This document shows positions 9,703 through 50,058 of a DNA stretch of 54,265 nucleotides, piece after piece (position 1 is the first letter of the stretch; every line of letters starts with the position of its first letter). The stretch is from a virus. Taxonomy: Duplodnaviria; Caudoviricetes. The stretch covers positions 1 to 54,265 of IMG/VR virus record IMGVR_UViG_3300012936_002700; one strand, 5' to 3'. The notes under the pieces were generated by a model. That model was not told the DNA's origin, searched no databases, and worked only from the letters and a program-made list of their open reading frames with translations. The translations under genes and the position numbers were made by a program.

Positions 9703-9728
9703 TCTCCTTAGTTAGTATTACGATGTAA

Positions 9729-18446: not shown

Positions 18447-18642
18447 CAGATACGGTTACCAAAGGTTCGTTTATATATGAATCATTGTAATCGCCGTTTT
18501 TCTGATACTGACGCACTGAAGTATCTTTTACCAGTACACCATCTTTAATAGTGTAAGTTGTATATTCTGCTTTGATTACACCTTCTTTAGATCTTTCAAT
18601 ATGTTCTTTCATTGGACCATCCTGTACTTTAGTCATTTGCAA
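18436..18642 (-). CDS. Small hypothetical protein between folE and queE
   Basis: ORF overlapping both neighbours. Confidence 0.6.
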   Translation of the reverse strand: MQMTKVQDGPMKEHIERSKEGVIKAEYTTYTIKDGVLVKDTSVRQYQKNGDYNDSYINEPLVTVSDVR

Positions 18643-31424: not shown

Positions 31425-34094
31425 TTAACCCCCAAAGTCAAATAAGTTATTAAATGTGTTTTTAGTTTTAGTGCTTTCTAAATCATAGTTAAGCACACCA
31501 ATCAAGTTGCCAAGTTTGTTGTCAATGATTGTTCCTTCCATAGCATCGCCATCGAACGGAAGTTCTTTAAACCAGTCCGGCAAATGTAATTCATCTACAG
31601 GATATGCAACACTTGTATAACCCATTGGATTTTGTTTTAGTTTACAAACAATAACTTTCATACCATCTACGATTTCTTGTGAATATTTGTCACCGTTCAT
31701 CTTTTTAAGTGTATTCCAGTTAATACTTGCTCTTACGTGTCCAGGCATATTTGCTTTACCTTGCTTTTGTTCAAGACGTTGATAATGTCCAATCTTGTTT
31801 GCACGTTTAGGCGAACCTTTTTCATGTCCAGGACGTGATTTAAATTCAGTTCTAAATTCTGTAATACGATCTAAAATAGTTTCTTCTTCTTCAAACTGTA
31901 ATACTTTAAGCAATAGTTCACTTAAAAAGTCTTGCATAAACACAGGAGTATCAGAACGTTTCAAGTCAAGACCCATTGCTTTTACTTTGCCTGGCTTACC
32001 ATCTACATCTGTACGTTCACCTTCATTATCATAAATTAGTGCGGCATACCTTTTCTTTGTAATGTACAATCCGCTTTCTGCAACAATCTCTCTACCTGCC
32101 GCAATTACATCTGATCTGCTTTTAGGACAATGAAATGCATCTATCATAAACTTAGGAAATGACTTGTTTGCTTCTGTACAAACTTGATCATACAATTTAA
32201 TTACATTGTCTTTACCCCAAGGAATATTACCTGCATCAATGTCTTGTTTAAGTACAGGATATGCACTAAAGTAACAGGAGTCTGTATCACCATATATAAT
32301 ACTTTTACCTACATGGTTGTATTCACCTGTAATAACTTTGTTTACTTCTGCGGACATATGTTTTACAATTTGTCTGCCTGTAAGTGTAGTTGATTGACCA
32401 ATACGTCCATCAAAGAATCTACAACCTGGATTAAGAATAGCACCATATAAACTATTTAGGTTAATTTTCTTAACAAGTTGCCTTTTATCCCAAAATTCTA
32501 TTTCTGCTTGGTTACCTGCATCAATGGCTTTCTTCTTCATTGCCTGCATATCTTTACGTTCACTATACCAACGTTTAAGTAGTCCTGGAATAACACCTTC
32601 ATACTCATATGTAAAAATAGTACCGTTAGCACTCATCATCCAAGGATTGTTGCTATCAAAAATTATTTTGTGTATTTGTGCACCACTCATTACATCACTT
32701 TGTCCGTTCTCCCAGTCTACAGTAATGCTTACATCTCTACGTTGTTCCATGACAGCATCATACTCCATAGTACCAAAACGACCTTCCCAAGCCGCCGCAA
32801 ATGATTTCTTTTTCAAGTTCATTTGTTCGCCTACATACTTGTTTGTAAGTTCTGGACGAAGTTGTCCTATTACAGTTTCAGGAGCCATGTTCAATGCTCT
32901 AATTACAGATGGATATAGTGAATTCAAGTCCATTGAACCAATCCATCTATGCACTCCTACCTTAGGAAAGGCCACGTAAGCACCTGCCGCCGGATCACTT
33001 CCAGGTTCACGTTTTACTCTATTAGGAACTTGCATTCCTCTGTGATGTGCTTCGTTGATAATTGCTTGTTCTGTAACTGCTACTGCACCCATAGTAGTCT
33101 GTAGCAAAACAGTATTTGCATGAGCAAGTTCGTTACTTAGGTCAATAAATCTTAGTTTTTTGTCCAGTTTGTCCAGCAGGGCAACGTCTTGTCTATTGTA
33201 TTCGATAAACGTTCTGAAGTCATTGTTATAAAGTTGATCGAGTGTACCTTCATACACAGTTTTCTTTTCACCAACTTCCATTTCTCCAATAGCGTCAAGT
33301 CTATATGTGTGTCTTTCTTCATATGTGTATTTACGATATAGTTCCAAACTATCTAAATGCACTCTGCCTATTAGGTCATAGGTTTCTTGTTGTCTTCCAA
33401 ACTTTTCATATTCTCTTTTCTTAGGAAACTGATCCCACAAACAAAAACGTCTTGTATCATCTTTACTCAATACTTTTGCAACACGATTGACTGTATATGG
33501 AATATCATAACCTTCACTGTTCCAACCAGTAATAATATCACTGTCTTGTATAAGATCAAGAAATGTTTTAAGCATATCTCTTTCATCAGCAAATAAATGT
33601 GTATTAGGAAATTCTTTGACTTGCTCTTGTGCTTCTTCCATTGTAAGTGTCTTAGGCGGAACTGCAAGTGTTACAAGACTGTCTAACCATTGCAAGTGTA
33701 CTGTGATTGCAGTAATTGGCATAAATGGATCACTTGGATCAGCAAAGCCTCTTTCAGGATCAAAGTCTGTCTCAATATCAAAGAATGCTACGTTAAGTTT
33801 AGGAGCATCATGATGTAGATAGTTTTCACTCAAACATTGGAATATAGGATTGATATCGCTTTCGAATAATTCTTTGTTTTTGTTTATTGCTTGTTCTTTA
33901 CGAAAGTCTTTTGTATTTTTACAAATAATTCTGTTTAAAGGATCACCGTGGATACTTTTATATTTCCCTCTTGGGTCTGCATAGTAAAATGTATATTTGA
34001 CTGGATATTCTGTAAAGTGTCTCTTACCATCTTTACGTTCTACAACACGAATAATATCTGCGTTGCGGTCAAAGTGTGCGTCTACGTAACTCAT
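31425..34094 (-). CDS. Family B DNA polymerase (gp43-like)
   Basis: Exo FDIET and YN..D; Pol DLNSLYPS, K...NSLYG, YGDTDS, KKRY. Confidence 0.97.
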   Translation of the reverse strand: MSYVDAHFDRNADIIRVVERKDGKRHFTEYPVKYTFYYADPRGKYKSIHGDPLNRIICKNTKDFRKEQAINKNKELFESDINPIFQCLSENYLHHDAPKLNVAFFDIETDFDPERGFADPSDPFMPITAITVHLQWLDSLVTLAVPPKTLTMEEAQEQVKEFPNTHLFADERDMLKTFLDLIQDSDIITGWNSEGYDIPYTVNRVAKVLSKDDTRRFCLWDQFPKKREYEKFGRQQETYDLIGRVHLDSLELYRKYTYEERHTYRLDAIGEMEVGEKKTVYEGTLDQLYNNDFRTFIEYNRQDVALLDKLDKKLRFIDLSNELAHANTVLLQTTMGAVAVTEQAIINEAHHRGMQVPNRVKREPGSDPAAGAYVAFPKVGVHRWIGSMDLNSLYPSVIRALNMAPETVIGQLRPELTNKYVGEQMNLKKKSFAAAWEGRFGTMEYDAVMEQRRDVSITVDWENGQSDVMSGAQIHKIIFDSNNPWMMSANGTIFTYEYEGVIPGLLKRWYSERKDMQAMKKKAIDAGNQAEIEFWDKRQLVKKINLNSLYGAILNPGCRFFDGRIGQSTTLTGRQIVKHMSAEVNKVITGEYNHVGKSIIYGDTDSCYFSAYPVLKQDIDAGNIPWGKDNVIKLYDQVCTEANKSFPKFMIDAFHCPKSRSDVIAAGREIVAESGLYITKKRYAALIYDNEGERTDVDGKPGKVKAMGLDLKRSDTPVFMQDFLSELLLKVLQFEEEETILDRITEFRTEFKSRPGHEKGSPKRANKIGHYQRLEQKQGKANMPGHVRASINWNTLKKMNGDKYSQEIVDGMKVIVCKLKQNPMGYTSVAYPVDELHLPDWFKELPFDGDAMEGTIIDNKLGNLIGVLNYDLESTKTKNTFNNLFDFGG

Positions 34095-35732: not shown

Positions 35733-36383
35733 CTATGTGTCCAATGTTTCGTCTTTTGATTTGTATGCCCATTGGTCTGTGTGTCCAACTGACCATTTTG
35801 GTGTATTTTCAACTGTGTAGTTTTGAGTGCATACTTTGAAGTCTGGAGTCATTTTATCAGGATTAACAAGACTTTGATCTGTAAACACAACTCTATTATT
35901 AGGTTGTGCCGCAAATTGTCCGTTATCAAGTTTTATAAAATTAAATGATTTGTGTTCTGGATCATGTTCAGAGAAGTTAGTATCTAAAGAACTGTTATCT
36001 CTATGACAAGTGTCAAGGGTAAACATATATTCACCTTTGTGCATTTTACGATCTTTGCCAAAAAATTCACAGTCACAAAGTAAAGGCTTTTTAATAACAG
36101 TAATATCGTAATCAAAACAATCCCATATTTGTAATGTGTCTAAAGGAAGTTGATTATCTTTGTCATAATCTTCTTTCCAAACAAATGCACTAATAGGTAG
36201 TTTATCATACAATGCTCCGTATTCTGTGAGTAATGTCTCAATATATAATGCTTTAGATTGTATGCTTCTTATTGATATCCAGACACCAGGGGTTAGTTCA
36301 CCGTGTCCTTTTTGATGATCGTACAGATATTCTTTTTTAACATAAACTTCTGTTGGTGGTAAATTGTGTACTAAAAAGGCCAT
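35733..36383 (-). CDS. Hypothetical phage protein
   Basis: ORF preceded by TAAATA (36411-36416); GQFAAQPNNR. Confidence 0.75.
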   Translation of the reverse strand: MAFLVHNLPPTEVYVKKEYLYDHQKGHGELTPGVWISIRSIQSKALYIETLLTEYGALYDKLPISAFVWKEDYDKDNQLPLDTLQIWDCFDYDITVIKKPLLCDCEFFGKDRKMHKGEYMFTLDTCHRDNSSLDTNFSEHDPEHKSFNFIKLDNGQFAAQPNNRVVFTDQSLVNPDKMTPDFKVCTQNYTVENTPKWSVGHTDQWAYKSKDETLDT

Positions 36384-36413
36384 AGTGTTCCTTGGTTAAG
36401 TTAGTACAAGTAT

Positions 36414-36539
36414 TTATCGCTTTTTCTTTTTCCTGCCTGCACAATGAGCCTTTTGAGAGAAGCCTTTTGGATTAGAACAGTTAATACTTTTCTTGTATTT
36501 TGCTGTCCATTTTTCTCGGACTATCTCTTTAAATCTCAT
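36414..36539 (-). CDS. 41-aa basic Cys-containing peptide with MRFKEIVRE leader (not in track)
   Basis: MRFKEIVREKWTAKYKKSINCSNPKGFSQKAHCAGRKKKKR. Confidence 0.7.
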   Translation of the reverse strand: MRFKEIVREKWTAKYKKSINCSNPKGFSQKAHCAGRKKKKR

Positions 36540-36730
36540 TTAATAAGGTCACAGGTTTTAGCATTGGCTGTAAGTTCTTCACCCTTTTTGTGTAACCATA
36601 CATAAGAGTATACAATAGTACCATCTTCTGCTTCACTACACTTTTTGCCAAATTTCATTGCTGGTGGTACAATGTGTCCACTGCATCCAGCCAAGAATAA
36701 ACCTAATGTGATAATTGCTATAAGTTTCAT
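36536..36730 (-). CDS. Small lipoprotein
   Basis: Signal peptide with LAGC lipobox. Confidence 0.7.
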   Translation of the reverse strand: MKLIAIITLGLFLAGCSGHIVPPAMKFGKKCSEAEDGTIVYSYVWLHKKGEELTANAKTCDLIK

Positions 36731-37137
36731 TTTGTTTTAACGTTCTTCGCTTTACCGCGTCTATTTTTGTTTGGATCTTCTCGACGCTTACGACTTGCGG
36801 CTTTTTTACGGCCTTTTTTACCTAAAGCATATGCTTTAGCGGCAGGTAAGCATTTAGGCTTTCCTTCTTTGCTACTGCCTCTTGCACACTGGCCTCTAAC
36901 TTTTCCATCAGGACCAAAGCGTACCCATTTCTGTTTAAACCATTTTTTAAGATTTTCGTTTAGTTCTACTTCTTCAGAAAACAGCAAGTTACCGCATTTT
37001 ACACAATAGTCAACGTGTTCACGTTTTACACAATTAGGTACACGTTTTCCGAACATGGTTTTCATGCCCTTCTTTTCGTAGCCTTTCCAGCAACGTGTTC
37101 CTTCGTCTATTATGTTGATTAGTTCTCTTAGCCTCAT
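36727..37137 (-). CDS. Basic modular protein, putative internal head protein
   Basis: Leader MRLRELINIIDE; modules CWKGY...PNCV and LNE/NLKKWF...KCLP. Confidence 0.7.
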   Translation of the reverse strand: MRLRELINIIDEGTRCWKGYEKKGMKTMFGKRVPNCVKREHVDYCVKCGNLLFSEEVELNENLKKWFKQKWVRFGPDGKVRGQCARGSSKEGKPKCLPAAKAYALGKKGRKKAASRKRREDPNKNRRGKAKNVKTK

Positions 37138-37138
37138 C

Positions 37139-37795
37139 TTACTTCTTACTGTTGCCCCAGTTCTTTGCGCCTTTCTTACGACACTGAACTAAAGCACCAG
37201 AGGCGTAAGCACTTGGCCAAACTTTGTATCTTGCTTTGACTTTATGATAACAAGCATCTTTTTTACCTGCGGCTTCGTCAAACTGTTCCTCAGTGATAGG
37301 CTTGTTAATGAAATTTTCTAATACTAATGACTGGTTAGTCTTTTTTTTTGAACTTAAATTTTCTTTAAGTTTATCTTCAAGTGAACTTTTGTAATTCTCT
37401 TTTTTCTTTTTACCGCGATCATGTTTATATGCTTCGTCGGTTTGTTTTTCTTTTTTATCTTTGATAGCCTTTTTCATAGGCTCTTTTTTATTGCCGTCTT
37501 TATCCATATCTAAAAAATCTGGTTTAGATTTCTTTGCTTCTTGTACTTCATCAAACTTTTGTTCGTAATCCATATGGTGATAAACAGATGCCATATAGTC
37601 TGCGGCTTTAGTAATTTTTGATTGCACCCAACCTTCAAGTCCTTCACGCTCTTCAACACCTTTAAGCATTTCGTGCATCTTAATGGAGTACTTGGCAATT
37701 TTGTACAGTTCTGCACGTGCCATTTGTACTTCGTGATCTGATTCAGCCTTGTATGCTAAATCTGCTAATCCTTCTTTAAGTTGTTTTGCTTTCAT
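37139..37795 (-). CDS. Modular protein, putative internal head protein
   Basis: Leader MKAKQLKE; DHEVQMAR module, EF-hand-like DMDKDGN, DACYHKVK...WPSAYASG module. Confidence 0.7.
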   Translation of the reverse strand: MKAKQLKEGLADLAYKAESDHEVQMARAELYKIAKYSIKMHEMLKGVEEREGLEGWVQSKITKAADYMASVYHHMDYEQKFDEVQEAKKSKPDFLDMDKDGNKKEPMKKAIKDKKEKQTDEAYKHDRGKKKKENYKSSLEDKLKENLSSKKKTNQSLVLENFINKPITEEQFDEAAGKKDACYHKVKARYKVWPSAYASGALVQCRKKGAKNWGNSKK

Positions 37796-37803
37796 AATAG
37801 TAT

Positions 37804-38655
37804 TTACCTTTTTACTGCGGCTCCGCCCATTAAGTTTGCTCCGCCCATATCCAAAGCATTTACCGCTGTACCATCACCTTTTTTCTTTTGTGGTGCTTTA
37901 GGTAAACCTTTTGAATCTCTTGGACGCTGTCCATATGCCATACTTGGATTTGCTACTGCGGCAATATTTCCTGCGGCTGTAGCACCTGCTGTAGCGGCTT
38001 CTTCAATGCCTGCAAGTTTTCTCATTTCGTTGGCTAAATCTGATACCGGCTTTTCTTGATTAACAGTTGCACCGGATACAATCTTTGCTAATTGTTTTAC
38101 AGCATCTACTTCTGATGCTTCATTGCTTGTATAACCTTTTTTGGCTCCGTCAACTTTTAATTTATGTAATCTACGACTTATTTCTTTTTTAAGATCATCA
38201 TCTTTATCTGTGTTTGGATCCATTTGAAGATCTTGAATGGCTTTTTTCTTAGCCATGTAATCTTCTTTATCTCTTGTAGGAGTAGTTCTACTATCTTCAG
38301 CCGCTGGTGCTGGAGCACCTCCTGCTTTTTCTGCTTGTTTAACAAGCATCATAAATTTGTTTCTTAAAGTTTGGTCACCAAGTATAGTTGATAATTGTTT
38401 TGCAAAAGGAGCAATTTGTTTGCTTAATGTTCCTGTTAATGCACCACCTGACGCAAGTTTATCTAAACCCTTTGCCATTGCCGCACCAGAACCGCTTTTG
38501 CCACCCATTTTATTAGCGGCCATTTTAGCACCTTGACCAACTTTTTGTGCTACTTTACCAGCCGCCGCTTTCACTGCACCAGCCGCTTGTGTTGCAGGCT
38601 CTTGTTGTTGTGCTAACGGGTTTTCTTCTATGCTTGTTAATTCTCTCAGTTTCAT
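37804..38655 (-). CDS. Ala/Gly-rich modular protein, putative internal head protein
   Basis: Leader MKLRELTSIEE; MRKLAGIEE/AATAGAT. Confidence 0.7.
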   Translation of the reverse strand: MKLRELTSIEENPLAQQQEPATQAAGAVKAAAGKVAQKVGQGAKMAANKMGGKSGSGAAMAKGLDKLASGGALTGTLSKQIAPFAKQLSTILGDQTLRNKFMMLVKQAEKAGGAPAPAAEDSRTTPTRDKEDYMAKKKAIQDLQMDPNTDKDDDLKKEISRRLHKLKVDGAKKGYTSNEASEVDAVKQLAKIVSGATVNQEKPVSDLANEMRKLAGIEEAATAGATAAGNIAAVANPSMAYGQRPRDSKGLPKAPQKKKGDGTAVNALDMGGANLMGGAAVKR

Positions 38656-38659
38656 ACTA

Positions 38660-41197
38660 CTATTTACCTTTTTTCTTACGTCCGCCCTTCATGTTGGCGC
38701 ACCAATGATACATTTTTGCACGTTCTCCTGATGCATTTTTAGCCTTCTTACGCAATGATGTTACACTTCCTTTACAACTTGCACCCGCTTTTTTAACCCT
38801 TCCAGGTCTACTTTTGCCCTTCTTCTTGCCATCAGCAAAGTTTTCAGAAACTTTATCTTTTACTTCTATATCTGTATCTGGAATTACAATAGCACTTATT
38901 TCTTTTTTACCTGCTTTTTTGTGTCCCCAGAATCTATGATGTCCGTCAATAACTTGATAACCATTTTTATACTTTCTTACCCATACTGGCGGCATTTTTT
39001 CACCTTTTTCGATTGATGAAATAATATTAGCAAGTTTTGTTGCACTTGCAGGTTGATTCATTTTTTTATCAGGTTCAAAACCTACTAATTTATCAGTTGA
39101 AATATTTATAGGTGCTCCTGACGGTTTATAGTCTCCTGGCTCAGCACCATAGTAACTTGGGTCAGTGTATAAGATTATTTTCTTTTTTCCGTCTGCAACG
39201 TTTTCTCCAAATGGTCTATTTTTAGCAGACTTATCTTTTTTAATCTGTAATTCAATGCCGGATAATCTTTTATTTAGATCTCGAATTTTTGGCTCAAGAT
39301 CCTTAATAGTTTGCACGACTTTCTTTAGTTTACTATTTTGTTTATCGTCAACAGCATCGTTATCTTGATCAGTGTCTATTACAGATTTAAGTAATGCATC
39401 TAATGGATCCTGTGCGTGTGGATATTTTGCTCTAAGTTGTGCTAAAGCCTGCATTGTCTCAGGGTCAAACCCTCTCATTTCTTCTTTGTCTTTTGCTTCA
39501 TTGACTAAAGATTCTACATAGTCGTCAATCATTACAACACGAGCCATATCTTTTCCTTGTGTTGCAAGTGCATCATATCTATGATGGCCGTTAACGATTC
39601 TGCCTTTGCGATCAACAACAATAGGTGAATAAGTATCTTCACGTACTTTCTTATATTGTTTTATAAGTTTTATAAAATCTCTATCTTTTTGCACAGGCTT
39701 AATATTTGCAAGTTTCATTACACCTTGCTTACCGTCAACATCTTTTGATTTAATTTGTGGTGGTGCTTCTCCGTCTGTAGGCTCTGGATCAAAGTTATGA
39801 TCTTGATAACCACTTACGTCACCTACCTTGTATCCTAAACGTTTTAAGTTTCGAATCATATGTTTTGCTTCTTTTTCTCCACCAAAGAAGTTTAACATTA
39901 TATCTTGGTCACCCATGTTAGCATCATCTGGATTAGTTGTTGCTATGTTGGCCATGTTACGCCCTAACTTCATAAAGTCGTAATCTGTTGCGTCACTATC
40001 TACTGATACACTATTTTTTGGTAAAGGTATAAGGTCGCCTTCATCAACTGGCTTGTCAAAGTAGCCTTTTAAATTTTTTGCAGTTCTTTCAAACTTATGA
40101 TCTTTGTGTTTAAATCCAACACCGCCTGATGCTTCCCACTTACTAACATTTTGACCAAAGTCATCAATTAGTATGTTTGGAGTTCCGTCTGCTTGTTTTG
40201 CATAAGACTGTTTATCTGTTGTAATTATAACTTGCTTCGGAGGAAATGCTGATAAGTTTTTCTTTACCCACTCACGTTTGTGTGGTTCTGCTCTTTCATC
40301 ATTTGCTAACGGAGCAGATAGAATGTTGTATTCGCCTTTTATATCTTTAATAATACCTAATAATTTATCTGCATTAGGAGTAGGCTTTAAGTTAAGCCAA
40401 AAATCTTCTTTGTCTCTAATTGCCTGTAGTGCTTGATCAATGTTTTTTATTTGTTTCCAATCATCAACACCCATCATCTTTGTCCACTCACCAAAGAAGT
40501 CAACAAGTACACCGTCCATGTCAACAAATATTTCACTTGCACTTGAAAGTTCTTTTGCTTGTAATTCATTTACTTTACTTTCTTTAGCCATTTTTGTTGC
40601 GGTTGCATACATAACTGCTTTTGCATCTTTGCCATAGCGTTTTTTAAAGTCCTTGGAATTCTTTTTCATTCCTTTAACATATTTTTCTTTATCTTTTTCT
40701 TCGCCTTTAGTTAATGAACGTTCTTCAACACTTTCTTTTAATTCTGGATGATACAACCAATGAACATTTTTTGCATCTTTGCTTACTGATTTGTTGTCAA
40801 TTTTTATTTCAATTGGATACTTTTTCTTAGGATCGTTGTACCAATAGTATGAATCATAACTGCCATCAGCATTACTACGTATTACAAGTCCTCTTGTATG
40901 ATCTTTATCATCTGCTTGTAGTATAATATTTTTTCCATTTGGTAATTTTAAGTCAGCATCAAACTTTACTTTTTTAGTTTCTTTATGTGCAGATTCAGCC
41001 ATTCCTAAATTAAACAATACATTTGTTTTGGAACCTTTTACTTTTTTAGATAGTGTAGGTGGACGTCCACCTTTGTCTACTTTGTTTCCAAACTTGGCGG
41101 CTTGTTTCTTTATTTCGCCAGGACCTACATCAGCAGTTGTATTTTGCTTTGTAATAATACCAACACCAGCGGCTTCTATAACATCACGCCATTTCAT
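38660..41197 (-). CDS. Large modular protein: HAD 5'(3')-nucleotidase-like domain, two ParB/Srx-like domains and short basic modules
   Basis: Leader MKWRDVIE; FVDMDGV...ILIDD; PIVV...VNGHHR; PPV.V...IDGHHR. Confidence 0.75.
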   Translation of the reverse strand: MKWRDVIEAAGVGIITKQNTTADVGPGEIKKQAAKFGNKVDKGGRPPTLSKKVKGSKTNVLFNLGMAESAHKETKKVKFDADLKLPNGKNIILQADDKDHTRGLVIRSNADGSYDSYYWYNDPKKKYPIEIKIDNKSVSKDAKNVHWLYHPELKESVEERSLTKGEEKDKEKYVKGMKKNSKDFKKRYGKDAKAVMYATATKMAKESKVNELQAKELSSASEIFVDMDGVLVDFFGEWTKMMGVDDWKQIKNIDQALQAIRDKEDFWLNLKPTPNADKLLGIIKDIKGEYNILSAPLANDERAEPHKREWVKKNLSAFPPKQVIITTDKQSYAKQADGTPNILIDDFGQNVSKWEASGGVGFKHKDHKFERTAKNLKGYFDKPVDEGDLIPLPKNSVSVDSDATDYDFMKLGRNMANIATTNPDDANMGDQDIMLNFFGGEKEAKHMIRNLKRLGYKVGDVSGYQDHNFDPEPTDGEAPPQIKSKDVDGKQGVMKLANIKPVQKDRDFIKLIKQYKKVREDTYSPIVVDRKGRIVNGHHRYDALATQGKDMARVVMIDDYVESLVNEAKDKEEMRGFDPETMQALAQLRAKYPHAQDPLDALLKSVIDTDQDNDAVDDKQNSKLKKVVQTIKDLEPKIRDLNKRLSGIELQIKKDKSAKNRPFGENVADGKKKIILYTDPSYYGAEPGDYKPSGAPINISTDKLVGFEPDKKMNQPASATKLANIISSIEKGEKMPPVWVRKYKNGYQVIDGHHRFWGHKKAGKKEISAIVIPDTDIEVKDKVSENFADGKKKGKSRPGRVKKAGASCKGSVTSLRKKAKNASGERAKMYHWCANMKGGRKKKGK

Positions 41198-41412
41198 TTA
41201 GTACGTCCTCTAAATTTTGCAGGCATTCCTAACCAGTAAGGTCTACTAAACCAAAGTTGAAACCATTCTGTATCTCCAGGTTTAATACCTTTTTCTCTTT
41301 CAATGCGTTTTTTTTCAGTTCCGGTATGACTTATATTTTCATCAACAGGCTTCAATCCTTGAAAACTATATTCACCTACACCTGCTAATCTTTTTAAAGT
41401 ATCTAAATCCAT
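41194..41412 (-). CDS. Small hypothetical protein with LKRLAG motif
   Basis: ORF; IKPG..EWF.LWF. Confidence 0.7.
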   Translation of the reverse strand: MDLDTLKRLAGVGEYSFQGLKPVDENISHTGTEKKRIEREKGIKPGDTEWFQLWFSRPYWLGMPAKFRGRTK

Positions 41413-42554
41413 TATGCTGTCGCTAAATCTGCTTCTATTTCTTTTTTAATTTGTGCTATTTCTGCATTATCAGGTTTGAAGTCTTTGATAATGTTTGTCA
41501 TTTCTTTTCTGGATTTACCTTCTTTCTCTGCGGTAGTCAATTCATCATATAATTTTTTACCACCGTATATAGCAATAGCAACGCCCACTGCTGGTAATCC
41601 ATACTTTAATAATCCTTTTACAATAGGATGATCAATTACGCCTTGAACAAATTCTATTGCATCTGATATCCAACTAATACCTTTCCATGCAACTAATGAG
41701 AAACTAATTAACCATTTGTTGTTCCATAAAAATTTTCCAAGTTTTAATATTGTACCACCATATCGAAGTGTTGTTAACACCGCTGGCATTATTTCATCTA
41801 AATTTTCATCTTTTTTCTTAGTACCGAAAGCATCATGTCTAAAGGCTTTATCAGTACCAACTTTACTTGCCAATGCTCTACGTCTTTTAATTTTATCTTG
41901 TATTGATGGTTCTTCTGGCTCTGGTGGTCTTCTTTTTACTGTATGCTTTTTTCCACTGGTAGTTGCAAAGCCGAATATTTCATTTGTATTTTCATTACCT
42001 AAAATACCTTGTAACTTTTCAAACATTTTTTTAGCAAAAGGTTTTGCACTTTTAGTAACATTTGCTTCAAAGGTATCATAGTCACCATCCATTGCCGCTT
42101 GACGTAACTTTGTTGCACTTGCACCAGAAGCATCATCTGCTGATGCATCACGTGAAAGTTTCTTTTGATTAATACTATTAAATTGAAAAAAGCCATGTGT
42201 GGCTTCTGTTCCATTATATTTTTCTAATAAAGGACGTAATTTATCTTCTCCTTCAAAAATTGTTATATCTGTATATCCTTTTTTGTATAATTCTACAGCA
42301 ACAGGAAATACATTCTTTGCAAGACTAACATTTATATCTGGAAAACTTTTTTCTGCCCAGTCTAATTTTTCTTGTGGTGATAAAGGATCTGTTGGTAGTT
42401 TAGCAGGACGATCAGTTAAGAATAAAAATGCATCTCCTGGTCCTTGTTTAATTGCTTCAACGAGTAAGGCATGACCTCTATGTGCAGGATTCATTCTGCC
42501 TAATGCAAAACTTGCTTCTTTAGTAGGTGCTTCGAATAGTTGCCTTAGTAACAT
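41412..42554 (-). CDS. HxGH nucleotidyltransferase (cytidyltransferase-like) with C-terminal modules including a hydrophobic segment
   Basis: Leader MLLRQLFE; GRMNPAHRGH, PL...EK, SATKLR. Confidence 0.75.
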   Translation of the reverse strand: MLLRQLFEAPTKEASFALGRMNPAHRGHALLVEAIKQGPGDAFLFLTDRPAKLPTDPLSPQEKLDWAEKSFPDINVSLAKNVFPVAVELYKKGYTDITIFEGEDKLRPLLEKYNGTEATHGFFQFNSINQKKLSRDASADDASGASATKLRQAAMDGDYDTFEANVTKSAKPFAKKMFEKLQGILGNENTNEIFGFATTSGKKHTVKRRPPEPEEPSIQDKIKRRRALASKVGTDKAFRHDAFGTKKKDENLDEIMPAVLTTLRYGGTILKLGKFLWNNKWLISFSLVAWKGISWISDAIEFVQGVIDHPIVKGLLKYGLPAVGVAIAIYGGKKLYDELTTAEKEGKSRKEMTNIIKDFKPDNAEIAQIKKEIEADLATA

Positions 42555-42889
42555 TAGTACTCGCCTTCTTTAAATCCATCTGTCTCTTGATCAATTATTG
42601 ACTGTGCAAGTACCTTTCTTTCATCGGGTGTCATTAAATCATTTTCGGCATAAGGTAAATCATATTTCTTTACATAATGACTTAATCCTTTGTCAACCAT
42701 AGGCAATACAAATCCCATTACTTTGTTAGCATCGCCTTTGTTATAGCAGTCTTGACACTTTGCCATAGTAGGATAATATAATTGTCTGTAAAAATTAGTA
42801 TCATCTCTCATGTGGCATAACAAATCACTCGGTACGTCAAATGATGGTTGGTCTTGTTTATCTTTTTTGATTAAATCATCAATGTTCAT
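42554..42889 (-). CDS. Hypothetical protein
   Basis: ORF. Confidence 0.7.
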   Translation of the reverse strand: MNIDDLIKKDKQDQPSFDVPSDLLCHMRDDTNFYRQLYYPTMAKCQDCYNKGDANKVMGFVLPMVDKGLSHYVKKYDLPYAENDLMTPDERKVLAQSIIDQETDGFKEGEY

Positions 42890-42892
42890 AAT

Positions 42893-43714
42893 TTACCACT
42901 TTCTGCAAGACCAGTAACGTGCTTTTGTTCTTGGTCCTGGATTATCACAATTATGTCTTGCTCTAAAACTCTTTCTTGCACCTGGATTGTTTTTTCTAAT
43001 ACGCATTGATTTACCTTTTACACTGCTACCGCCGTGTCCAAAGTTAACCTTTTTAACGTTTCCTGTTTTAGGATCTTTTACGTATACTTTAAATTTCTTA
43101 ACATCACCTGCCATAGGTTTGCCAAGTTTAACTTTACGTCCTTGGTACTCTGCTTCATCCATAGGATCGTCATCATCATTGTACCACATAACACCATATG
43201 CTTCGTAGAAATCATCATCGTCATCATATGTTTCGTCTATACTTGCATTTGCAAGTGTTTTGATTCTATCAAGTTCGTCAGTGTCTTCATCAACACCAAA
43301 ACCTACAATATCATCTCCTAAGATCTTTACCGCTTCTGTGCAGGTGTCTTCATCAATTTCTGATACACCCATAAGTTTCATAAATTCTTTTTGCATAGCA
43401 TCTGTGATAGGTAACATTTTTGAGAATTTTTCTGGATTACGAAACAGTTCATCTTCGGCTTTGTTTCTGTCGCCACCAAACATTTCTACTGCTTTTTCAA
43501 ATTCGTTGTCTTCAACCCCATCTGTTAAAATGCCTGAGTCTATAAAGCCTCTAAACATACCAGATGGTAGTTCGTCACCGTTGTTGCCTCGATACTTGCT
43601 GTATTTGTTATACCAAGCCTCTAATGCTGACTTGTCAACGTGTGCTTCTGCTACATTAGGTTGGTCGACTACATCGAGTCCTGCTTCTTTAAGATATCTT
43701 TTAAATTCGCTCAT
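42893..43714 (-). CDS. Modular protein: acidic N-part plus basic C-terminal module
   Basis: MSEFKRYLKEAGL; MDE/AEYQGRKV...SFRARHNC...YWSC. Confidence 0.7.
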   Translation of the reverse strand: MSEFKRYLKEAGLDVVDQPNVAEAHVDKSALEAWYNKYSKYRGNNGDELPSGMFRGFIDSGILTDGVEDNEFEKAVEMFGGDRNKAEDELFRNPEKFSKMLPITDAMQKEFMKLMGVSEIDEDTCTEAVKILGDDIVGFGVDEDTDELDRIKTLANASIDETYDDDDDFYEAYGVMWYNDDDDPMDEAEYQGRKVKLGKPMAGDVKKFKVYVKDPKTGNVKKVNFGHGGSSVKGKSMRIRKNNPGARKSFRARHNCDNPGPRTKARYWSCRKW

Positions 43715-43773
43715 ATGATTAACCCTTTATACTGCTAATATAAAGTATTTATCACAGTTTGTCTACTAAAAGT

Positions 43774-44410: not shown

Positions 44411-46663
44411 CTATGCTGTTACAGTTTCTGCTTTTTTACTCGGTACTAATTGGATTTTGTTGTTCTTAGTGTCAATATGCAAGTGGCCACCATCTTTTAG
44501 TTTTCCGAACAATAGTATCTTACTCAAATCACGTTTGATCTCTTTGTCTATTGTACGTTGCAATGGTCTTGCACCCATCTTCTTGTCAAAGCCAACATCT
44601 ACAAGGTAATCAATAGTATCATCTGTAATGTCAACAGTAACATTTTTCTCTTTAAGCATATCACGTAATTCAACAAGGAACTTGCCTACAATTTTGATCA
44701 TTGTATTTTTCTCAAGTTTGCCAAATGCGATAACGCCATCAAGTCTATTACGGAATTCTGGAGCAAAAAACTTCTTAAGTTCTGTGTCTTCGTAATCCAT
44801 TTCCATATCTTCATTGAAGCCGATAGCATTTTTCTCTGCTTGTTCCGCACCTAAGTTAGTGGTAAGGATCAATACACAATTTTTTGCATCGGCTTCTTTC
44901 CCGTTGCTTCCGGTAACTTTTCCATTGTCCATTAATTGTAGTAGAATTTGTGAAACATCTGGGTGTGCTTTTTCTACTTCATCAAGTAGTAATACACAAT
45001 TAGGATGTTCTTGCAGTTTAGTAATTAACTGTCCTGCACTATCTTCATAACCTACATATCCTGGAGGTGAACCAATTAATTTTGCTACTGAATGTTTTTC
45101 TTGATACTCAGACATATCAAAACGTACAAGTTCAACACTTAATTCATTTGCAAGTTGCTTGGCTGTTTCTGTTTTACCTACACCAGTTGGACCCATAAAC
45201 ACAAACGCACCTACTGGTTTGTTATCTGGTTTAAGTCCTGCTTGTGCTACAAGGATTTTGTCTACAATCTCATCAATCGCTTTGTCTTGTCCATAAACTT
45301 GTTTCTTAAGATTATTTTCAAGATGTGCAAGATTGCTTGATTCTTTTTGTGATATTTGCTCTGGCGGAAGTTTAATTGCTTTTGCAAGTTCAAATTCTAC
45401 TTCTGCTTTGCCTACAATTTTGTCTCCTTTAACTTTTTTCAAATTAAAGCGTGAACAAGCAAGATCAAGTAAATCAATTGCTTTGTCTGGTAATTTTTTA
45501 TCTGCCATATATTTCACACTTAATTTAATTGCGGCATCAATTGCTTCTTCTGTAATAGTTGTACTATGATAATCTTCATAATACTTTTTAATACCAAGTA
45601 AAATATCTTTTGTAACTTCTTTGCTTGGCTCTGTAACACTAACACGTTGAAATCTACGCATCAATGCTCTGTCTTTTTCAAAATACTTTCTATATTCTTC
45701 CCATGTTGTACTTGCAACAACTTTAATATCACCTTTACCAAGTGCTGGCTTTAACATATTAGCAAGATCATTTGCACTATTAGAACCACCACCTGCACCT
45801 GCACCATTTATCATATGTGCTTCGTCGATGAATACTACTGTTTTACCTTGCTTTTTAATTGCCTGCATAACAAGTTTGAAACGTTCTTCAAAGTCGCCTC
45901 TGTATTTAGAACCTGCTAACATGGCACTTACGTCAAGATTATATACACTATATTCTTGTAAAAATTCTGGAACTGTTTTGTTAACAATATTAAATGCAAG
46001 TCCTTCAGCAATAGCAGTTTTACCTACACCAGGATCGCCTACAAGTAATACATTGTTTTTAGTTCTACGTCCAAGTGCAAGAGCAATGCTTTCAAGTTCT
46101 TCTGCTCTGCCAATAACGGGATCAATTTTATTTTGTTCAACTTCTTTGTTTAAATTTGTTGTATACTCACGTAAGGCTTTTTGTGCGACTGCTTTCATTT
46201 CTTCGTCGTCTGCCCAAGTATCAATCTCACTGTTTAAGTATTCTGCAAATCCTTCTTTTGTAAGTCCTGCTTTTTGAATATGGTAATATGACCAAGACTT
46301 TTTCTCATTCATGATACTTAAGAACACATCTGTTATCTCAATATGATGTCTACCACTGAACAAAACTTGTGTAAATGCTCTATTAAGAACACGTTCTACA
46401 GTAGCAGTCTTTTTAGGCTTGTATTTTTTAGCCATTTCTGGTGTTAACGTAATATCTTGTAAGTCTGCTTTTAAATAATGCTCAATATTCTTTTTAATAA
46501 ACTCAGGATCTACTCCTGTGCCTTCAACAATTTTACAGAACTTTTCAGAACATAGCATTGCAAATAGCAAATGCTCAAGAGTCACATACTCGTGATTTAA
46601 CTTCTTAGCATCTCCTGTTGCTTTATCAAATACTGCTTGTAAATCGTCACTTGGTTCAACCAT
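44411..46663 (-). CDS. clpA: ATP-dependent Clp protease ATPase subunit, ClpA-like
   Basis: Clp-N (HEYVTLEHLL), GDPGVGKT, GPTGVGKT, DMSEY, PPGYVG, IGF loop, GARPL; no ClpB M-domain. Confidence 0.9.
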   Translation of the reverse strand: MVEPSDDLQAVFDKATGDAKKLNHEYVTLEHLLFAMLCSEKFCKIVEGTGVDPEFIKKNIEHYLKADLQDITLTPEMAKKYKPKKTATVERVLNRAFTQVLFSGRHHIEITDVFLSIMNEKKSWSYYHIQKAGLTKEGFAEYLNSEIDTWADDEEMKAVAQKALREYTTNLNKEVEQNKIDPVIGRAEELESIALALGRRTKNNVLLVGDPGVGKTAIAEGLAFNIVNKTVPEFLQEYSVYNLDVSAMLAGSKYRGDFEERFKLVMQAIKKQGKTVVFIDEAHMINGAGAGGGSNSANDLANMLKPALGKGDIKVVASTTWEEYRKYFEKDRALMRRFQRVSVTEPSKEVTKDILLGIKKYYEDYHSTTITEEAIDAAIKLSVKYMADKKLPDKAIDLLDLACSRFNLKKVKGDKIVGKAEVEFELAKAIKLPPEQISQKESSNLAHLENNLKKQVYGQDKAIDEIVDKILVAQAGLKPDNKPVGAFVFMGPTGVGKTETAKQLANELSVELVRFDMSEYQEKHSVAKLIGSPPGYVGYEDSAGQLITKLQEHPNCVLLLDEVEKAHPDVSQILLQLMDNGKVTGSNGKEADAKNCVLILTTNLGAEQAEKNAIGFNEDMEMDYEDTELKKFFAPEFRNRLDGVIAFGKLEKNTMIKIVGKFLVELRDMLKEKNVTVDITDDTIDYLVDVGFDKKMGARPLQRTIDKEIKRDLSKILLFGKLKDGGHLHIDTKNNKIQLVPSKKAETVTA

Positions 46664-47180
46664 ATGTTATTACACCTTTATATCTTTTCATTAATTTTGC
46701 TTGTTTCTTCTTTGCCATATCTATTTTAATTTTACTTACACGGTCTGTATAATTAATACCATATAAGTGATCAAACTCATGTTGAAATATTCTTGCATTC
46801 CAACCTGTAAACTCTATTGTACATTCTTTTCCTGTAGAGTCAAGAAAAGATGCTACCAAAGCCTCGGCACGTTTTACCTTAAAGTATAGTAATGGAAAAC
46901 TTAAACACCCTTCTTCTCCTAAAACAGTTTGTTCAGATACCTTTTCAATCTTAGGATTGATTACTGCAAAAGGTTTATCATCATAACCTTCAAGTTTTTC
47001 AGGAGATAAAACAAAAATTTGTGCATCAAGTCCTACTTGATTTGCACTTAGACCAACACCATGTTCTTTTAACATGATAGCAATCATTTCCTCTTCAATT
47101 TTTTTAGCATCTAACTTATCAAAATCAAATGGTTGAACTTTCTTTTCTAACCATTCATTTGGATGATATACTAATTTCAT
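46656..47180 (-). CDS. def: Peptide deformylase
   Basis: GVGLSANQVG, EGCLS, QHEFDHL. Confidence 0.95.
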   Translation of the reverse strand: MKLVYHPNEWLEKKVQPFDFDKLDAKKIEEEMIAIMLKEHGVGLSANQVGLDAQIFVLSPEKLEGYDDKPFAVINPKIEKVSEQTVLGEEGCLSFPLLYFKVKRAEALVASFLDSTGKECTIEFTGWNARIFQHEFDHLYGINYTDRVSKIKIDMAKKKQAKLMKRYKGVITYG

Positions 47181-48013
47181 TTCTTTAACTTCCTTATTAC
47201 TTCGCGTTCTTCTTGTGTAAGATTCTTTGGAATCACACCGTTAATTTTTAAGTAAACATTTCCTGAAGATCCAGTGTTATAGTCGGGTAAGCCTTGTCCG
47301 TTTATGCTCATTACTGTGCCTGGTTGTGTGCCTTGTGGTATGTTAATACTTATAGTTCTACCTGAGGGCAAGGTTAAGTTTGTGGTAGTTCCTAATATCA
47401 AATCATATACATTTATAGATTTTTGAGTATGTAAATTCAAATGATCAATATCAAAATTTGGATCACGTAAAATTCTAACTCTAACATTTAAATTTCCTGC
47501 AGGTATATTTGGAATACTATTATCCCCTAAGCCTTGGTACCTAATTGTGTCACCTTGCCTTGCACCTTTGGGTACATCAATATTTACTGTACGTTCTTGT
47601 CCGCTATGTGTTCTGAATGTTGCAATTACTCCCTTTCCAGTATAAACTTCAGCAAGTGTAATATCACAATTGATTGTTATATCTGCATTTTGTTGATGTC
47701 GCGGACCTCTCCGTCCACCAAAGCCTCCTCCAAAAAATGTAGAAAACAAATCTCCCATATCACCATCAAAATGGAATTGAGTTCCTCCACCTTGGAATGG
47801 ATTTGCTTGTTGTGGATCAGCAGTACCATATTGGTCATACATTTGTTTCTTTTGGGGATCGGATAAAACTTGATATGCTTCGTTTAATTGGGTAAATTTT
47901 TTATGGTCACCACCTTTGTCAGGGTGATGCTTTGCCGCTTGTTTTCGGAAAGCAGTTTTTATATCTTTATCTGATGCGTTACGTGAAACGCCTAAAAGGT
48001 CGTAATAATCCAT
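47177..48013 (-). CDS. dnaJ: DnaJ-class co-chaperone without Zn finger (type II/CbpA-like)
   Basis: J-domain HPD, G/F-rich linker, C-terminal domain. Confidence 0.9.
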   Translation of the reverse strand: MDYYDLLGVSRNASDKDIKTAFRKQAAKHHPDKGGDHKKFTQLNEAYQVLSDPQKKQMYDQYGTADPQQANPFQGGGTQFHFDGDMGDLFSTFFGGGFGGRRGPRHQQNADITINCDITLAEVYTGKGVIATFRTHSGQERTVNIDVPKGARQGDTIRYQGLGDNSIPNIPAGNLNVRVRILRDPNFDIDHLNLHTQKSINVYDLILGTTTNLTLPSGRTISINIPQGTQPGTVMSINGQGLPDYNTGSSGNVYLKINGVIPKNLTQEEREVIRKLKK

Positions 48014-48847: not shown

Positions 48848-49207
48848 TTATTTTGTTTGGTCGCTTTCGTAATATTCTTTGTATTGATCAATAACCTGAC
48901 GTTGCTTGATCATGTATGCACGGATCTGTGCAAAGTTTTTAGAAAGAAATTCGTAATCTTTATCGCTTAAACCAAATAGCACAGGGTCTTTACCTTCTTC
49001 TTTTAGTTTAGCAAATACTTCATCTGCATTTTCGCTTGTAATGATTACCCATTTCAAAGGTTCCATCTTAACCGCTTCTGGATATGGCAAGTTCAAATTT
49101 TCTCTTGGAACTTCTTGTTCAAAGATTTTTAATTCTTTCACAGTAGAACACCCACTCACTGCTATAGCAAGTAAGGCAATAATTAATATTTTACTCATAC
49201 GGTACAT
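48848..49207 (-). CDS. Outer-membrane lipoprotein, o-spanin candidate
   Basis: Signal peptide with VSGC lipobox; overlaps the 3' end of the i-spanin candidate. Confidence 0.65.
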   Translation of the reverse strand: MYRMSKILIIALLAIAVSGCSTVKELKIFEQEVPRENLNLPYPEAVKMEPLKWVIITSENADEVFAKLKEEGKDPVLFGLSDKDYEFLSKNFAQIRAYMIKQRQVIDQYKEYYESDQTK

Positions 49208-49679
49208 AATTTGGATTTGCTATACTCGGACATTCAGAATTAATTTCTGATTTCAGTGTAGCATTTATTTCCTTCTCTGTTAGTTCTGCTCCCATAGCAA
49301 TTTCTACACATCTCATTGCTTTCTTGGTAGCATTGTTTATAACACGTTCTACTGACTCTGATCTTTTTACAGCAAGATCACCTAAGTCTCTTACTTCACC
49401 ACGACCATTTATTTTATTAAAACGTTTGTCCAGAGCGGCAAACTCTGCGGCAAGCGTTTTATTTGTTTTTTCAAGTTCTTTGTTTGCGGCCAATATTGCT
49501 TTGAAGTCATTTGCCTGTTGTTCTATCACAGCCTTTTGACTTTCAACACTTTTTTCTAACTTTAAATTGTTTGCTTCTGATGTAGCCAAGTCTGCTTTAA
49601 GATTCTTAACATACACAAAGCCACCGCCGGCACCTGCCAACATAATTAAAACCATTGCTATTTTAATTGATCCAAACAT
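49191..49679 (-). CDS. i-spanin candidate
   Basis: N-terminal TM, long coiled coil, C-terminal Cys residues. Confidence 0.65.
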   Translation of the reverse strand: MFGSIKIAMVLIMLAGAGGGFVYVKNLKADLATSEANNLKLEKSVESQKAVIEQQANDFKAILAANKELEKTNKTLAAEFAALDKRFNKINGRGEVRDLGDLAVKRSESVERVINNATKKAMRCVEIAMGAELTEKEINATLKSEINSECPSIANPNYVPYE

Positions 49680-49894
49680 TATGCTTCTACCAGTTTAATA
49701 AAGTCGCCAACTGTTTTTACGTTTGCTTCGTCTTCACTTGAAATAGTTTTGCCTGTTGCTTCTTGTATCGCAACTGCTAACTCAATAATATCAAACTCGT
49801 CTGCACCTAAGTCATCTATCAAAGATGCTTCTGGTACTACCTTAGATACATCAACGTCTAAATGTTCTGCAATGGCTTTAACGACTTTTTCCAT
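49679..49894 (-). CDS. Acyl carrier protein homologue lacking the phosphopantetheine serine
   Basis: EASLIDDLGADEFD.IEL...I...I...D...VKTVGD; canonical motif is DLGADSLD; probable start at 49894. Confidence 0.85.
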   Translation of the reverse strand: MEKVVKAIAEHLDVDVSKVVPEASLIDDLGADEFDIIELAVAIQEATGKTISSEDEANVKTVGDFIKLVEA

Positions 49895-50058
49895 TATCTT
49901 CTTCCTTGTTTGCAAACTTCGATGGTAATTGGCTTACCATCTCCGTCAAGCATTTCCTTAAAAAGAGGTCCTTCGTGATATTCGTGTCCACAGTTAGAAC
50001 AGCCTACTTGGCCATTCCCAACGCTGTGTCCTTCGTTTCTGTTACTCTGCGTGTCCAT
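49894..50058 (-). CDS. Small Cys/His protein (54 aa, not in track)
   Basis: MDTQSNRNEGHSVGNGQVGCSNCGHEYHEGPLFKEMLDGDGKPITIEVCKQGRR; its TAA overlaps the ACP ATG. Confidence 0.45.
   Translation of the reverse strand: MDTQSNRNEGHSVGNGQVGCSNCGHEYHEGPLFKEMLDGDGKPITIEVCKQGRR

Follow-up and report, generated by a model that had tools for sequence, protein, structure and literature searches.

Why do consecutive genes of an uncultured phage begin with similar short stretches of residues, each ending in a glutamate (Glu)? The question is raised by positions 36,414 to 43,714 of the IMG/VR virus record IMGVR_UViG_3300012936_002700, which we analyzed over its whole length (54,265 bases; hereafter the window) and to which CheckV assigns a completeness of 15%. 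According to the initial annotation, this gene cluster encodes capsid-targeted polyproteins that are cut after Glu into many small modules and delivered at infection, as an extension of what is established for the internal proteins (IPs) of phage T4. Our analysis supports a closely related reading, to which we give a probability of roughly 0.58: the cluster is a hypervariable late operon of a marine T4-like myovirus that encodes IP-like cargo proteins of the head interior. The window has a G+C content of about 35% and carries nearly all its genes on the minus strand. Its PHROG matches, among them a family B DNA polymerase gene (31425–34094; 1e-198), a ClpA-like ATPase, PhoH, thymidylate synthase, an endolysin with spanins and virion structural proteins, point to a marine T4-like myovirus.

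Ten open reading frames (ORFs) fill the region. All are on the minus strand and tightly packed, with stops and starts that overlap or abut. We named them by protein length; in the following list, as in the rest of the text, a slash within a sequence follows the Glu of a candidate site.

42893..43714, minus strand: p273, with leader MSEFKRYLKE (residues 1–10), an acidic spacer (11–187, net charge about -32) and a basic two-cysteine module (188–273, net +21, phrog_7595).
42554..42889, minus strand: p111, an acidic three-cysteine protein with a leader-like MNIDDLIKKD that lacks the Glu site.
41412..42554, minus strand: p380, with leader MLLRQLFE (1–8), a cytidylyltransferase/NMNAT-like domain (about 10–190), a linker and a hydrophobic C-terminal module (255–380).
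41194..41412, minus strand: p72, with the N-terminus MDLDTLKRLAGVGE, which contains an LKRLAG motif and a V-G-E site, and a basic C-terminal part.
38660..41197, minus strand: p845, with leader MKWRDVIE followed by eight modules.
37804..38655, minus strand: p283, with leader MKLRELTSIEE, a body rich in Ala, Gly and Lys, and an internal MRKLAGIEE/AAT.
37139..37795, minus strand: p218, with leader MKAKQLKE, a helical module (9–86), a Lys-rich linker and a basic two-cysteine DUF5872-like module (175–218, net +11).
36727..37137, minus strand: p136, with leader MRLRELINIIDE, a four-cysteine CWKGY module (13–61) and a basic two-cysteine module (62–136, net +24).
36536..36730, minus strand: a 64-amino-acid lipoprotein with the lipobox LAGC and no leader, inside the cluster.
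36414..36539, minus strand: p41, with leader MRFKEIVRE followed by a 32-residue basic two-cysteine peptide (net +12).

All seven leaders of 8–12 residues quoted in the initial annotation are exact, while p111, p72 and the lipoprotein have no such leader. We scored the leaders with a fixed criterion, [LIVMF]-x-E ending at residues 8–12 plus a Lys or Arg within residues 2–5. Seven of the ten cluster genes passed, compared to three of the 69 other genes in the window (Fisher p = 4.4e-6), and these three are otherwise unlike the leaders.

In the T4 genome (NC_000866), ipII and ipIII begin MKTYQEFIAE and ipI begins MKTFKEFTSTTTPVSTITE, that is, MKTFKEF..ITE. The leader of p273, in which positions 4 and 7 are aromatic and positions 8 and 10 are Leu and Glu, is of the T4 type (7–19 residues, ending in L/I-x-E, hydrophobic or aromatic at 4 and 7). 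Together with the leaders of its relatives, which begin MKTFQEYLKE, MTKTFKDYLAE or MKNFKEYLSE, it agrees with IPII and IPIII position by position. According to PMC9026906, gp21 cuts after the Glu of L/I-x-E, packaging needs only the first 10 residues of IPIII, and the leader positions that count are 4 and 7 in targeting, 8 and 10 in processing. The six other leaders end in [LIV]-x-E at residues 8–12, and the residue three before the cut is Leu or Ile in five of the seven and Val in two. Six of the seven belong to a shorter class, M-[KR]-x-[KR]-[EDQ]-hydrophobic-x(1–5)-E, which resembles the N-terminus of a small protein encoded at the gp67 position in related head modules (MILRELFYFDKE). None of the mature bodies matched an internal-virion-protein family in Pfam or PHROG, and no homology to T4 IPI, IPII, IPIII or Alt was found; the T4 literature describes the IP bodies as not conserved, the leader being their common feature. 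Taken together, we consider it likely that the leaders target the capsid.

We then looked at related loci. A scan of viral contigs with p845 matched 610 IMG/VR stretches, of which 607 encode a relative, and 80 loci were kept; their ORF sets are mechanical (first ATG, non-nested) and include some spurious frames. Across these 80 loci the cluster is syntenic and hypervariable. In four of them (L001, L003, L004 and L012) its content varies, and it is flanked on one side by the ClpA-like gene with two small genes after it and on the other by the gene adjoining DNA polymerase. Bodies change across relatives while leaders persist. Of 521 cluster ORFs, 349 have a hydrophobic-x-Glu that ends no later than residue 14, compared to 249 of 1462 other plus-strand ORFs; this measure is given as well because our first, strict leader pattern was too narrow and caught 64 of the 521. 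Among ORFs unrelated to the window proteins, the strict leader was present in 23 of 116 inside the cluster span versus 20 of 1346 outside it, and by reading of the list about half of these 20 abut the cluster. With blastn, named phages matched the region in short pieces only (at most 4% of the query); they were mostly Synechococcus and Prochlorococcus myoviruses, and also pelagiphages.

The initial annotation had also noted that several of the ORFs follow TAAATA motifs. ATAAATA occurs 10 times on the minus (coding) strand of the window and never on the plus strand, and seven of the 10 copies lie at most 60 nucleotides upstream of gene starts (7807, 13763, 36411, 43746, 44399, 48660 and 51813). 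Such strand specificity is consistent with a T4-type late promoter. Two copies border the cluster:

43746..43752, minus strand: ATAAATA motif 32 nucleotides upstream of p273, the first cluster gene; a motif match only.
36411..36417, minus strand: ATAAATA motif just past p41 and 28 nucleotides upstream of the next gene (35733–36383).

The second copy would mark the end of the cluster transcription unit. The motifs before p283 and p218 are only GGTAAATA, and since they overlap the previous stop codon and sit 4–5 nucleotides from the ATG they are doubtful promoters.

A gp21-like protease, expected by the initial annotation elsewhere in the genome, was found in relatives and not in the window. A search of the window for Peptidase_S77 (PF03420) gave no match, which we attribute to the window being a fragment. 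In three of five long related records, PF03420 was detected (E 1e-28 to 4e-27) beside portal, scaffold-position and major capsid genes. One of these, L086, has a T4-type head module made of a portal gene (phrog_213), a 79-residue protein, an acidic 303-residue protein, the protease (phrog_207; 9591–10229), a 366-residue scaffold-position protein and the major capsid protein (phrog_138). The N-terminal region of this capsid protein contains ..YLAE/NATAG; in T4 gp23, ..FLTE ends at residue 65, which we take to be the cleavage position.

Cultured cyanophages provide a link to virions. p380 matches phrog_3041 (2.3e-27) and phrog_395, and its nucleotidyltransferase domain is homologous to the cyanophage cytidylyltransferase family (T4-GC190); tblastn with the enzyme domain matched 266 phage records, and the rows listed are annotated as cytidylyltransferase with 25–34% identity. 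Those of the cyanophage enzymes that we consulted begin with the same kind of leader, MKKFSAFLKE in P-SSM4, MKKFSAFLNE in Syn19, MKKFSTFISE in S-RIM14 and MRFRQFIIE in S-SZBM1. Mass spectrometry of S-SM1 virions gave 25 counts for T4-GC190 (Sullivan et al. 2010, Table S8). The virion proteome in Table 1 of the S-SZBM1 paper includes gene 140, the enzyme, and the adjoining gene 139, a multi-module protein with the CWKGY module. According to the papers on S-SCSM1 and S-CREM2, virions of these phages also contain NMNAT- or cytidylyltransferase-like proteins, which brings the virion proteomes with p380 homologues to four.

Long multi-module proteins are also found in these phages. S-SCSM1 ORF29 (517 residues), S-SRM01 QPX48171 (609 residues) and S-RIM8 gene 098 (591 residues) are chains of the same small modules with hydrophobic-x-Glu between them. 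ORF29 is called "virion protein" in GenBank and has no function in the homology table of the paper, which makes the proteome the probable source of its name; in the S-SCSM1 supplement, neither peptides nor coverage are tabulated for ORF29. The multi-module gene of P-SSM2 (T4-GC121; L095 3174–5165) lies between the terminase genes gp16 and gp17, as does the gene for the multi-module basic protein of S-RIM8.

We next considered the bodies behind the leaders, of which p845 is the longest. Its modules are, by residue:

9–68: first module.
69–159: second module.
160–211: third module.
212–386 (40040..40564, minus strand): NT5C, a HAD-type 5'(3')-deoxyribonucleotidase module that contains DMDGV.
387–567: an alpha/beta part and the first ParB-like domain.
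568–665: a helical module.
666–785: the second ParB-like domain.
786–845 (38663..38842, minus strand): a basic two-cysteine module (net +19) preceded by VSE/NF, helical, with a predicted local distance difference test score (pLDDT) of 89–95 over residues 800–838.

The NT5C assignment (PF06941) reached 34.6 bits against a Pfam cut-off of 24.8 (E 2.2e-8). HAD motif I (DxDGV) is present, with D226, D228, G229 and V230 nearly invariant in 65 aligned sequences, and AlphaFold2 modelled the module with a pLDDT above 90. The second ParB-like copy is a marginal match to ParB_N (PF02195; 26.5 bits against 26.3, E 6.7e-6), the first matched only PHROG ParB-like families (3e-9 to 6e-9), and GHHR occurs in both.

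The abrupt switching of bodies between unrelated modules was borne out. Different parts of p136, p218 and p845 match several PHROG families, and modules swap genes in relatives: residues 106–211 of p845 turn up inside p218 homologues, the CWKGY module of p136 forms the end of a p218 homologue, and residues 188–257 of p380 turn up inside a p845 homologue. In L001–L004, the first p845 module is joined straight to the NT5C domain at ..NLGLAE/SK.., exactly where the window has two extra modules inserted.

All the internal sites listed in the initial annotation exist (LNE, VQE, LKE, FDE, IEE, VEE, VNE, VDE, VSE, LDE and MDE). Compared to shuffled sequences, site counts were 11 versus 10.6 in p845, 6 versus 7.1 in p380, 9 versus 4.0 in p218 and 9 versus 5.1 in p273. 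As there was no general excess, we tested positions instead of counts. For this, 464 distinct cluster proteins were compared all-versus-all, and a breakpoint was called where an alignment ends while both proteins run on for at least 15 residues; 632 breakpoints were well supported, with at least 10 alignments each. A hydrophobic-x-Glu lies at most one residue from 144 of these 632 (34.8 expected), a 4.1-fold excess, and the controls gave 0.71-fold for hydrophobic-x-Asp, 0.84-fold for x-Lys and 1.04-fold for x-Gln. In the window proteins, seven of 12 breakpoints fall within three residues of a site (1.5 expected) and nine of 12 within five. The p845 peaks at 72, 154, 208, 386, 570 and 780 are all at most five residues from sites (68, 155/159, 211, 386, 567 and 785). 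Modules are shuffled across related phages, with borders enriched at hydrophobic-x-Glu.

The clearest evidence for such borders is that the leader Glu and an internal site are equivalent, a given module starting at equal distance from either. WSxKYKKSINC, the module of p41, follows hydrophobic-x-Glu in 13 of 13 distinct contexts (seven N-terminal, six internal) and GRIVKGVNTT in 33 of 33 (23 N-terminal, 10 internal). In relatives and cyanophages, the CWKGY module likewise stands behind either kind of site. Some internal contexts resemble whole leaders (..FKHYLRKIEE, ..FQHLIREYIEE), so that the multi-module proteins probably arose by fusion and fission of neighboring leader-bearing genes.

Sites also differ in conservation according to where they stand. 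Leader sites are kept in 42 of 43 (p218), 25 of 27 and 41 of 45 (p380) alignments, and junction sites in 35 of 37 (p845 residue 68), 30 of 35 (p845 785), 45 of 45 (p273 187, MDE/AE) and nine of 11 (p380 254). Intradomain sites are kept in 25 of 71 (p845 237), 10 of 35 (p845 520) and 3–14 of 50 (p380 33, 101, 111 and 179). AlphaFold2 modelled p845 from 65 aligned sequences with a mean pLDDT of 67.5. Segments with a pLDDT below 50, which hold 29% of the residues, contain seven of its 11 sites (P = 0.017); sites 237 (NT5C) and 520 (ParB) are in cores above 90. The original proposal is supported in part. For targeting, in silico support is good and comes from the T4-like leaders, the late-promoter-like motif, the S77 protease and head genes in relatives and the four virion proteomes with p380 homologues. 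Cutting is indicated indirectly, by breakpoints, register, conservation and low-confidence linkers, and for cutting at module junctions we see even odds.

A second motif separates the cluster from its surroundings. [LIVM][KRQEH][KRQEH]LAG[ILV] was found in 69 of 523 cluster ORFs and in none of the 2661 other ORFs of the loci. In the window it occurs at the N-terminus of p72 (41371–41397) and at residues 211–219 of p283 (37999–38025). In three related genomes, this LKRLAG motif is the C-terminal end of the scaffold-position protein (L086: 10244–11344). The C-terminus of T4 gp22 lacks it, and the motif is therefore not a general T4 feature. As a lead only, LKRLAG may be a second, independent docking signal for the capsid interior.

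Several results speak against our reading of the cluster. The window holds no protease, scaffold or capsid gene, being a 54-kb fragment that is 15% complete, and PF03420 is absent from two of the five long related records, including the closest long one (G001), both of which are also fragments. The shorter leader class is farther from the T4 10-mer than is the p273 leader. T4-GC190 was not detected in S-PM2 or Syn9, and T4-GC121 is not among the rows consulted of the same table for S-SM1, S-PM2 and Syn9 (Sullivan et al. 2010, Table S8); the authors of the S-SCSM1 and S-CREM2 papers caution that abundant non-structural proteins might co-purify. The number of sites is at shuffled expectation in eight of the ten proteins, only p218 and p273 being higher. 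The breakpoint statistics pool 464 related proteins that are not independent, and the point at which a BLAST alignment ends is imprecise. No site lies near three of the 12 window breakpoints (p845 81 and 479, p380 191). Other x-x-Glu sites are also enriched at breakpoints, 2.0-fold, and part of the signal may therefore come from Glu-rich linkers. Sequence logos of leader, junction and background sites showed that junctions differ little from background; the residue three before the junction cut is mostly Val (36%), not the Leu or Ile of T4. Sites 211 and 567 of p845 are in predicted helices at domain edges.

The last three of these points, as well as the resemblance of internal junctions to whole leaders (such as ..FKHYLRKIEE before GRIVKGVNTT), would also fit a different course of events, in which the leaders are real and removed and the multi-domain bodies are packaged and ejected intact. 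The internal sites would then be fusion scars and Glu-rich linkers that are not used, and the proteins would behave like polyvalent proteins, whose ParB-domain members are described as packaged multi-domain effectors (PMC5512222). We regard this as rather unlikely. A retained leader keeps a gp21-type cut site, so that non-cleavage would need site protection, and conservation of 85–100% at junctions compared to 6–35% within domains is unexpected for neutral scars. Moreover, the seven p845 sites noted above lie in predicted disordered, accessible linkers, and T4 itself cuts gp22, gp67 and gp68 into several fragments and Alt at both ends (PMC9026906).

The resemblance of the leaders to the gp67-position protein raises another possibility, that the cluster encodes accessories of the prohead core or scaffold like T4 gp67 and gp68, which give the head its shape and, broken down by the protease, for the most part leave it before DNA is packaged rather than being delivered. 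The LKRLAG motif, which p72 and p283 have in common with the C-terminal end of the scaffold-position protein, and the long acidic stretch of p273, which is like T4 gp67 and gp68, point the same way. The explanation fits poorly with a cluster that is hypervariable, far from the head module and adjacent to replication genes. Conserved enzyme domains with catalytic motifs (the nearly invariant NT5C, ParB, cytidylyltransferase) make little sense as disposable scaffold, and the cytidylyltransferase family is reported in mature virions; we find this explanation improbable. We give still less weight to the idea that the proteins act in the cell and not in the virion, with N-termini and junctions that reflect constraints of translation initiation or coupling, or serve as recombination joints for gene shuffling, like the promoter-terminator cassettes of T4-type phages. 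In its favor, the genes are tightly packed, stops overlap starts and a AGGTAAATA..ATG junction recurs, and shuffling of modules via conserved cassettes is described for T4-type phages (PMC2839356, PMC4122927). Conservation is however at the protein level and follows, at each position, the T4 leader that experiments have defined. Modules keep one register behind the leader Glu and behind internal sites, leader-carrying homologues are reported in virions, and a role in recombination does not exclude one in targeting.

For an operon of IP-like cargo, the scheme that we infer for packaging, cleavage, fragment fate, injection and module function is as follows. By analogy with T4, each leader would dock its cargo protein on the scaffolding core during prohead assembly. 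A gp21-type serine prohead protease would then cut after the Glu of (L/I/V/M/F)-x-E, which would remove the leader, and the same protease might separate the modules, at least where the linkers between them are exposed. Like T4 core peptides, the acidic spacers would exit the head. The strongly basic two-cysteine modules that end five proteins (p41, p136, p218, p845 and p273; net +11 to +24) would stay with the DNA as peptides, and these small modules may neutralize its charge, judging from their own charge and from the T4 IPs. With a predicted mass of 3–9 kDa, such peptides would not survive trypsin, and this may account for weak detection. The enzymes would be ejected with the DNA and act before phage gene expression; they would comprise the NT5C 5'-nucleotidase, two ParB-like nuclease/NTPase domains and the cytidylyl/NMN-adenylyltransferase-like enzyme.

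A bolder version is possible but tentative. Here the leader would be at once targeting tag, protease site and point of fusion or fission, such that any gene placed behind it becomes cargo; cargo genes could fuse or split and stay functional, since the modules would be parted again by the head protease. LKRLAG would perhaps be a second tag, and the basic two-cysteine peptides would be protamine-like counter-ions, possibly stapled by disulfides inside the virion until reduction in the cytoplasm of the host frees them.

Compared to known systems, we regard the cluster as a variant of the T4 internal-protein system, in the form of a modular, polyprotein-like cargo cluster. Like IPI, IPII, IPIII and Alt, its proteins have a leader of about 10 residues ending in Glu, with equal residue classes at positions 4, 7, 8 and 10. 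In both, the mature parts are basic and the bodies vary strongly behind a leader that is conserved; the cluster genes, like those of the T4 proteins, are probably late, and related genomes encode a gp21-type S77 protease. Unlike in T4, where ipI is about 8 kb from ipII and ipIII, seven leader-bearing genes are in one operon, most leaders are of the second, shorter class, no T4 IP body family was matched, and bodies have up to eight modules, enzymes included, with leader-like sites between them. T4 gp22, gp67 and gp68 offer a precedent for one precursor cut many times at L/I-x-E, with acidic pieces that leave the head (PMC9026906), and for acidic and basic segments in one chain; they are however conserved and encoded in the head module, while the cluster proteins are variable, encoded outside it and carry enzyme domains.

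Polyvalent proteins (Iyer et al. 2017, PMC5512222) are likewise effectors of several domains, ParB-like ones included, whose genes accompany late or virion genes. They are predicted to be packaged and injected, and processing into separate domains, by an in-built metallopeptidase domain, has been proposed (PMC5512222). p845 has the two or more unrelated effector domains that define them, namely NT5C, two ParB-like domains and other modules. Pfam searches (E limits of 0.01 for whole proteins and 1 for separate modules) found no metallopeptidase, MuF, ART, SNF2 or primase domain. In contrast to polyvalent proteins, the targeting signal and candidate cut sites are here those of the T4-type head protease, with no built-in peptidase. 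Phages of the phiKZ type have a small residue (S, A or G) three before the cut, an inner body and a virion RNA polymerase. They are a different phage group without T4-type 10-residue leaders, and shuffling at the sites is not described for them. The head and ejection proteins of phiKZ, 201phi2-1 and SPN3US are nonetheless comparable, in that gp21-like proteases process many proteins of the head interior after the Glu of short motifs, with redundant propeptide sites (PMC9026906).

Among the closest known counterparts are cyanophage T4-GC190 and T4-GC121/S-SCSM1 ORF29/S-SZBM1 gene 139, which have homologous modules, the same leaders on the enzyme and reported detection by virion mass spectrometry. 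They differ in that most small modules are fused into one protein of 500–660 residues between gp16 and gp17. In the parts of the cyanophage papers that we consulted, these proteins are labelled "hypothetical", "virion protein" or auxiliary metabolic genes, and no packaging mechanism is given. Our literature search found no paper that joins cyanophages or marine T4-like phages with the capsid-targeting sequence except a T4 review; subscription-only papers (such as the Syn9 and S-PM2 proteomes) were outside the search. Four features are new: many leader-bearing multi-module proteins are encoded in one operon, their junctions look like leaders, they are linked to enzymes of cyanophage virions, and the arrangement is widespread among marine T4-like phages.

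Individual modules gave few further leads. The separate modules, compared to Pfam at E up to 1, returned only a weak DUF5872 match and chance-level matches. The DUF5872 match is that of the p218 C-terminal module and is below cut-off (E = 0.0028); this module has 365 matching phage records, with 64–90% identity over about 40–60 residues among the matches listed, and p218 also matches phrog_727 and phrog_3477. The basic module of p273 occurs alone as viral proteins of 75–89 residues in the ESM Atlas, where a look-up with residues 188–273 returned unnamed viral clusters only; the same look-up with residues 9–68 of p845 gave no usable lead (scores at most 0.84). No Pfam or PHROG family matched p111, whose homologues begin MKLKEF.. 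or MKFDDIL.. and are present in 58 of the 80 loci, nor p283, with homologues in 66 of the 80; p72 has homologues in 68 of the 80. The 64-residue lipoprotein has homologues in four of the 80 loci, elsewhere in the cluster (between the p72 and p845 homologues in L001, L003 and L004). It is probably not cargo and may be a superinfection-exclusion-type gene.

Leader-like N-termini were also seen elsewhere. In S-RIM8, a gene for 108 residues (L094 5903–6229) that follows the gene for the multi-module basic protein begins MKSYNEFISE, almost the IPII/IPIII leader. In L086, a 255-residue protein without a PHROG match, encoded near neck and portal genes (1709–2476, plus strand), begins MKVFDILTE/SKQVDE/G, which indicates that leader-bearing proteins also occur in the structural module.

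Directly upstream of the cluster (44411–48013, minus strand) are genes for a ClpA-like AAA+ protein (750 residues; phrog_4871, 4e-244), a peptide deformylase (46656–47180, minus strand) and a 278-residue protein that begins MDYYDLLGVSRNASDKDIK, a start that may be J-domain-like. These genes, syntenic in L001, L003, L004 and L012, look like a protein-handling module adjoining the cargo genes. Elsewhere in the window, genes for a QueE-like radical SAM protein and GTP cyclohydrolase, plus two more radical SAM genes (17550–19315 and 1012–3037, both minus strand), suggest 7-deazaguanine-type or other modification of phage DNA bases. The lysis cassette (48848–50531, minus strand) consists of two spanin-like genes and an endolysin gene, with an acyl-carrier-protein-like gene (49679–49915) between spanins and endolysin. 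CheckV completeness is 15% for the 54-kb window, 56% for a 200-kb relative and 44% for a 157-kb relative, from which the expected genome would be near 350 kb, far above typical T4-like cyanophages.

The cyanophage virion papers, in the parts consulted, leave open whether, and how, the NMNAT/cytidylyltransferase-like proteins and other non-structural ones are really packaged. That the very enzymes reported in virions bear a T4-type leader would offer a concrete and testable packaging mechanism. If the junction sites are cut, abundant ocean phages would deliver a recombining set of enzymes and basic peptides at infection, which would bear on early host takeover and counter-defence, and virion cargo of uncultured T4-like phages could be predicted by rule from sequence alone. 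Should the leader indeed be tag, protease site and fusion point in one, marine T4-like phages, cyanophages included, would possess a plug-and-play library of injected enzymes and peptides.

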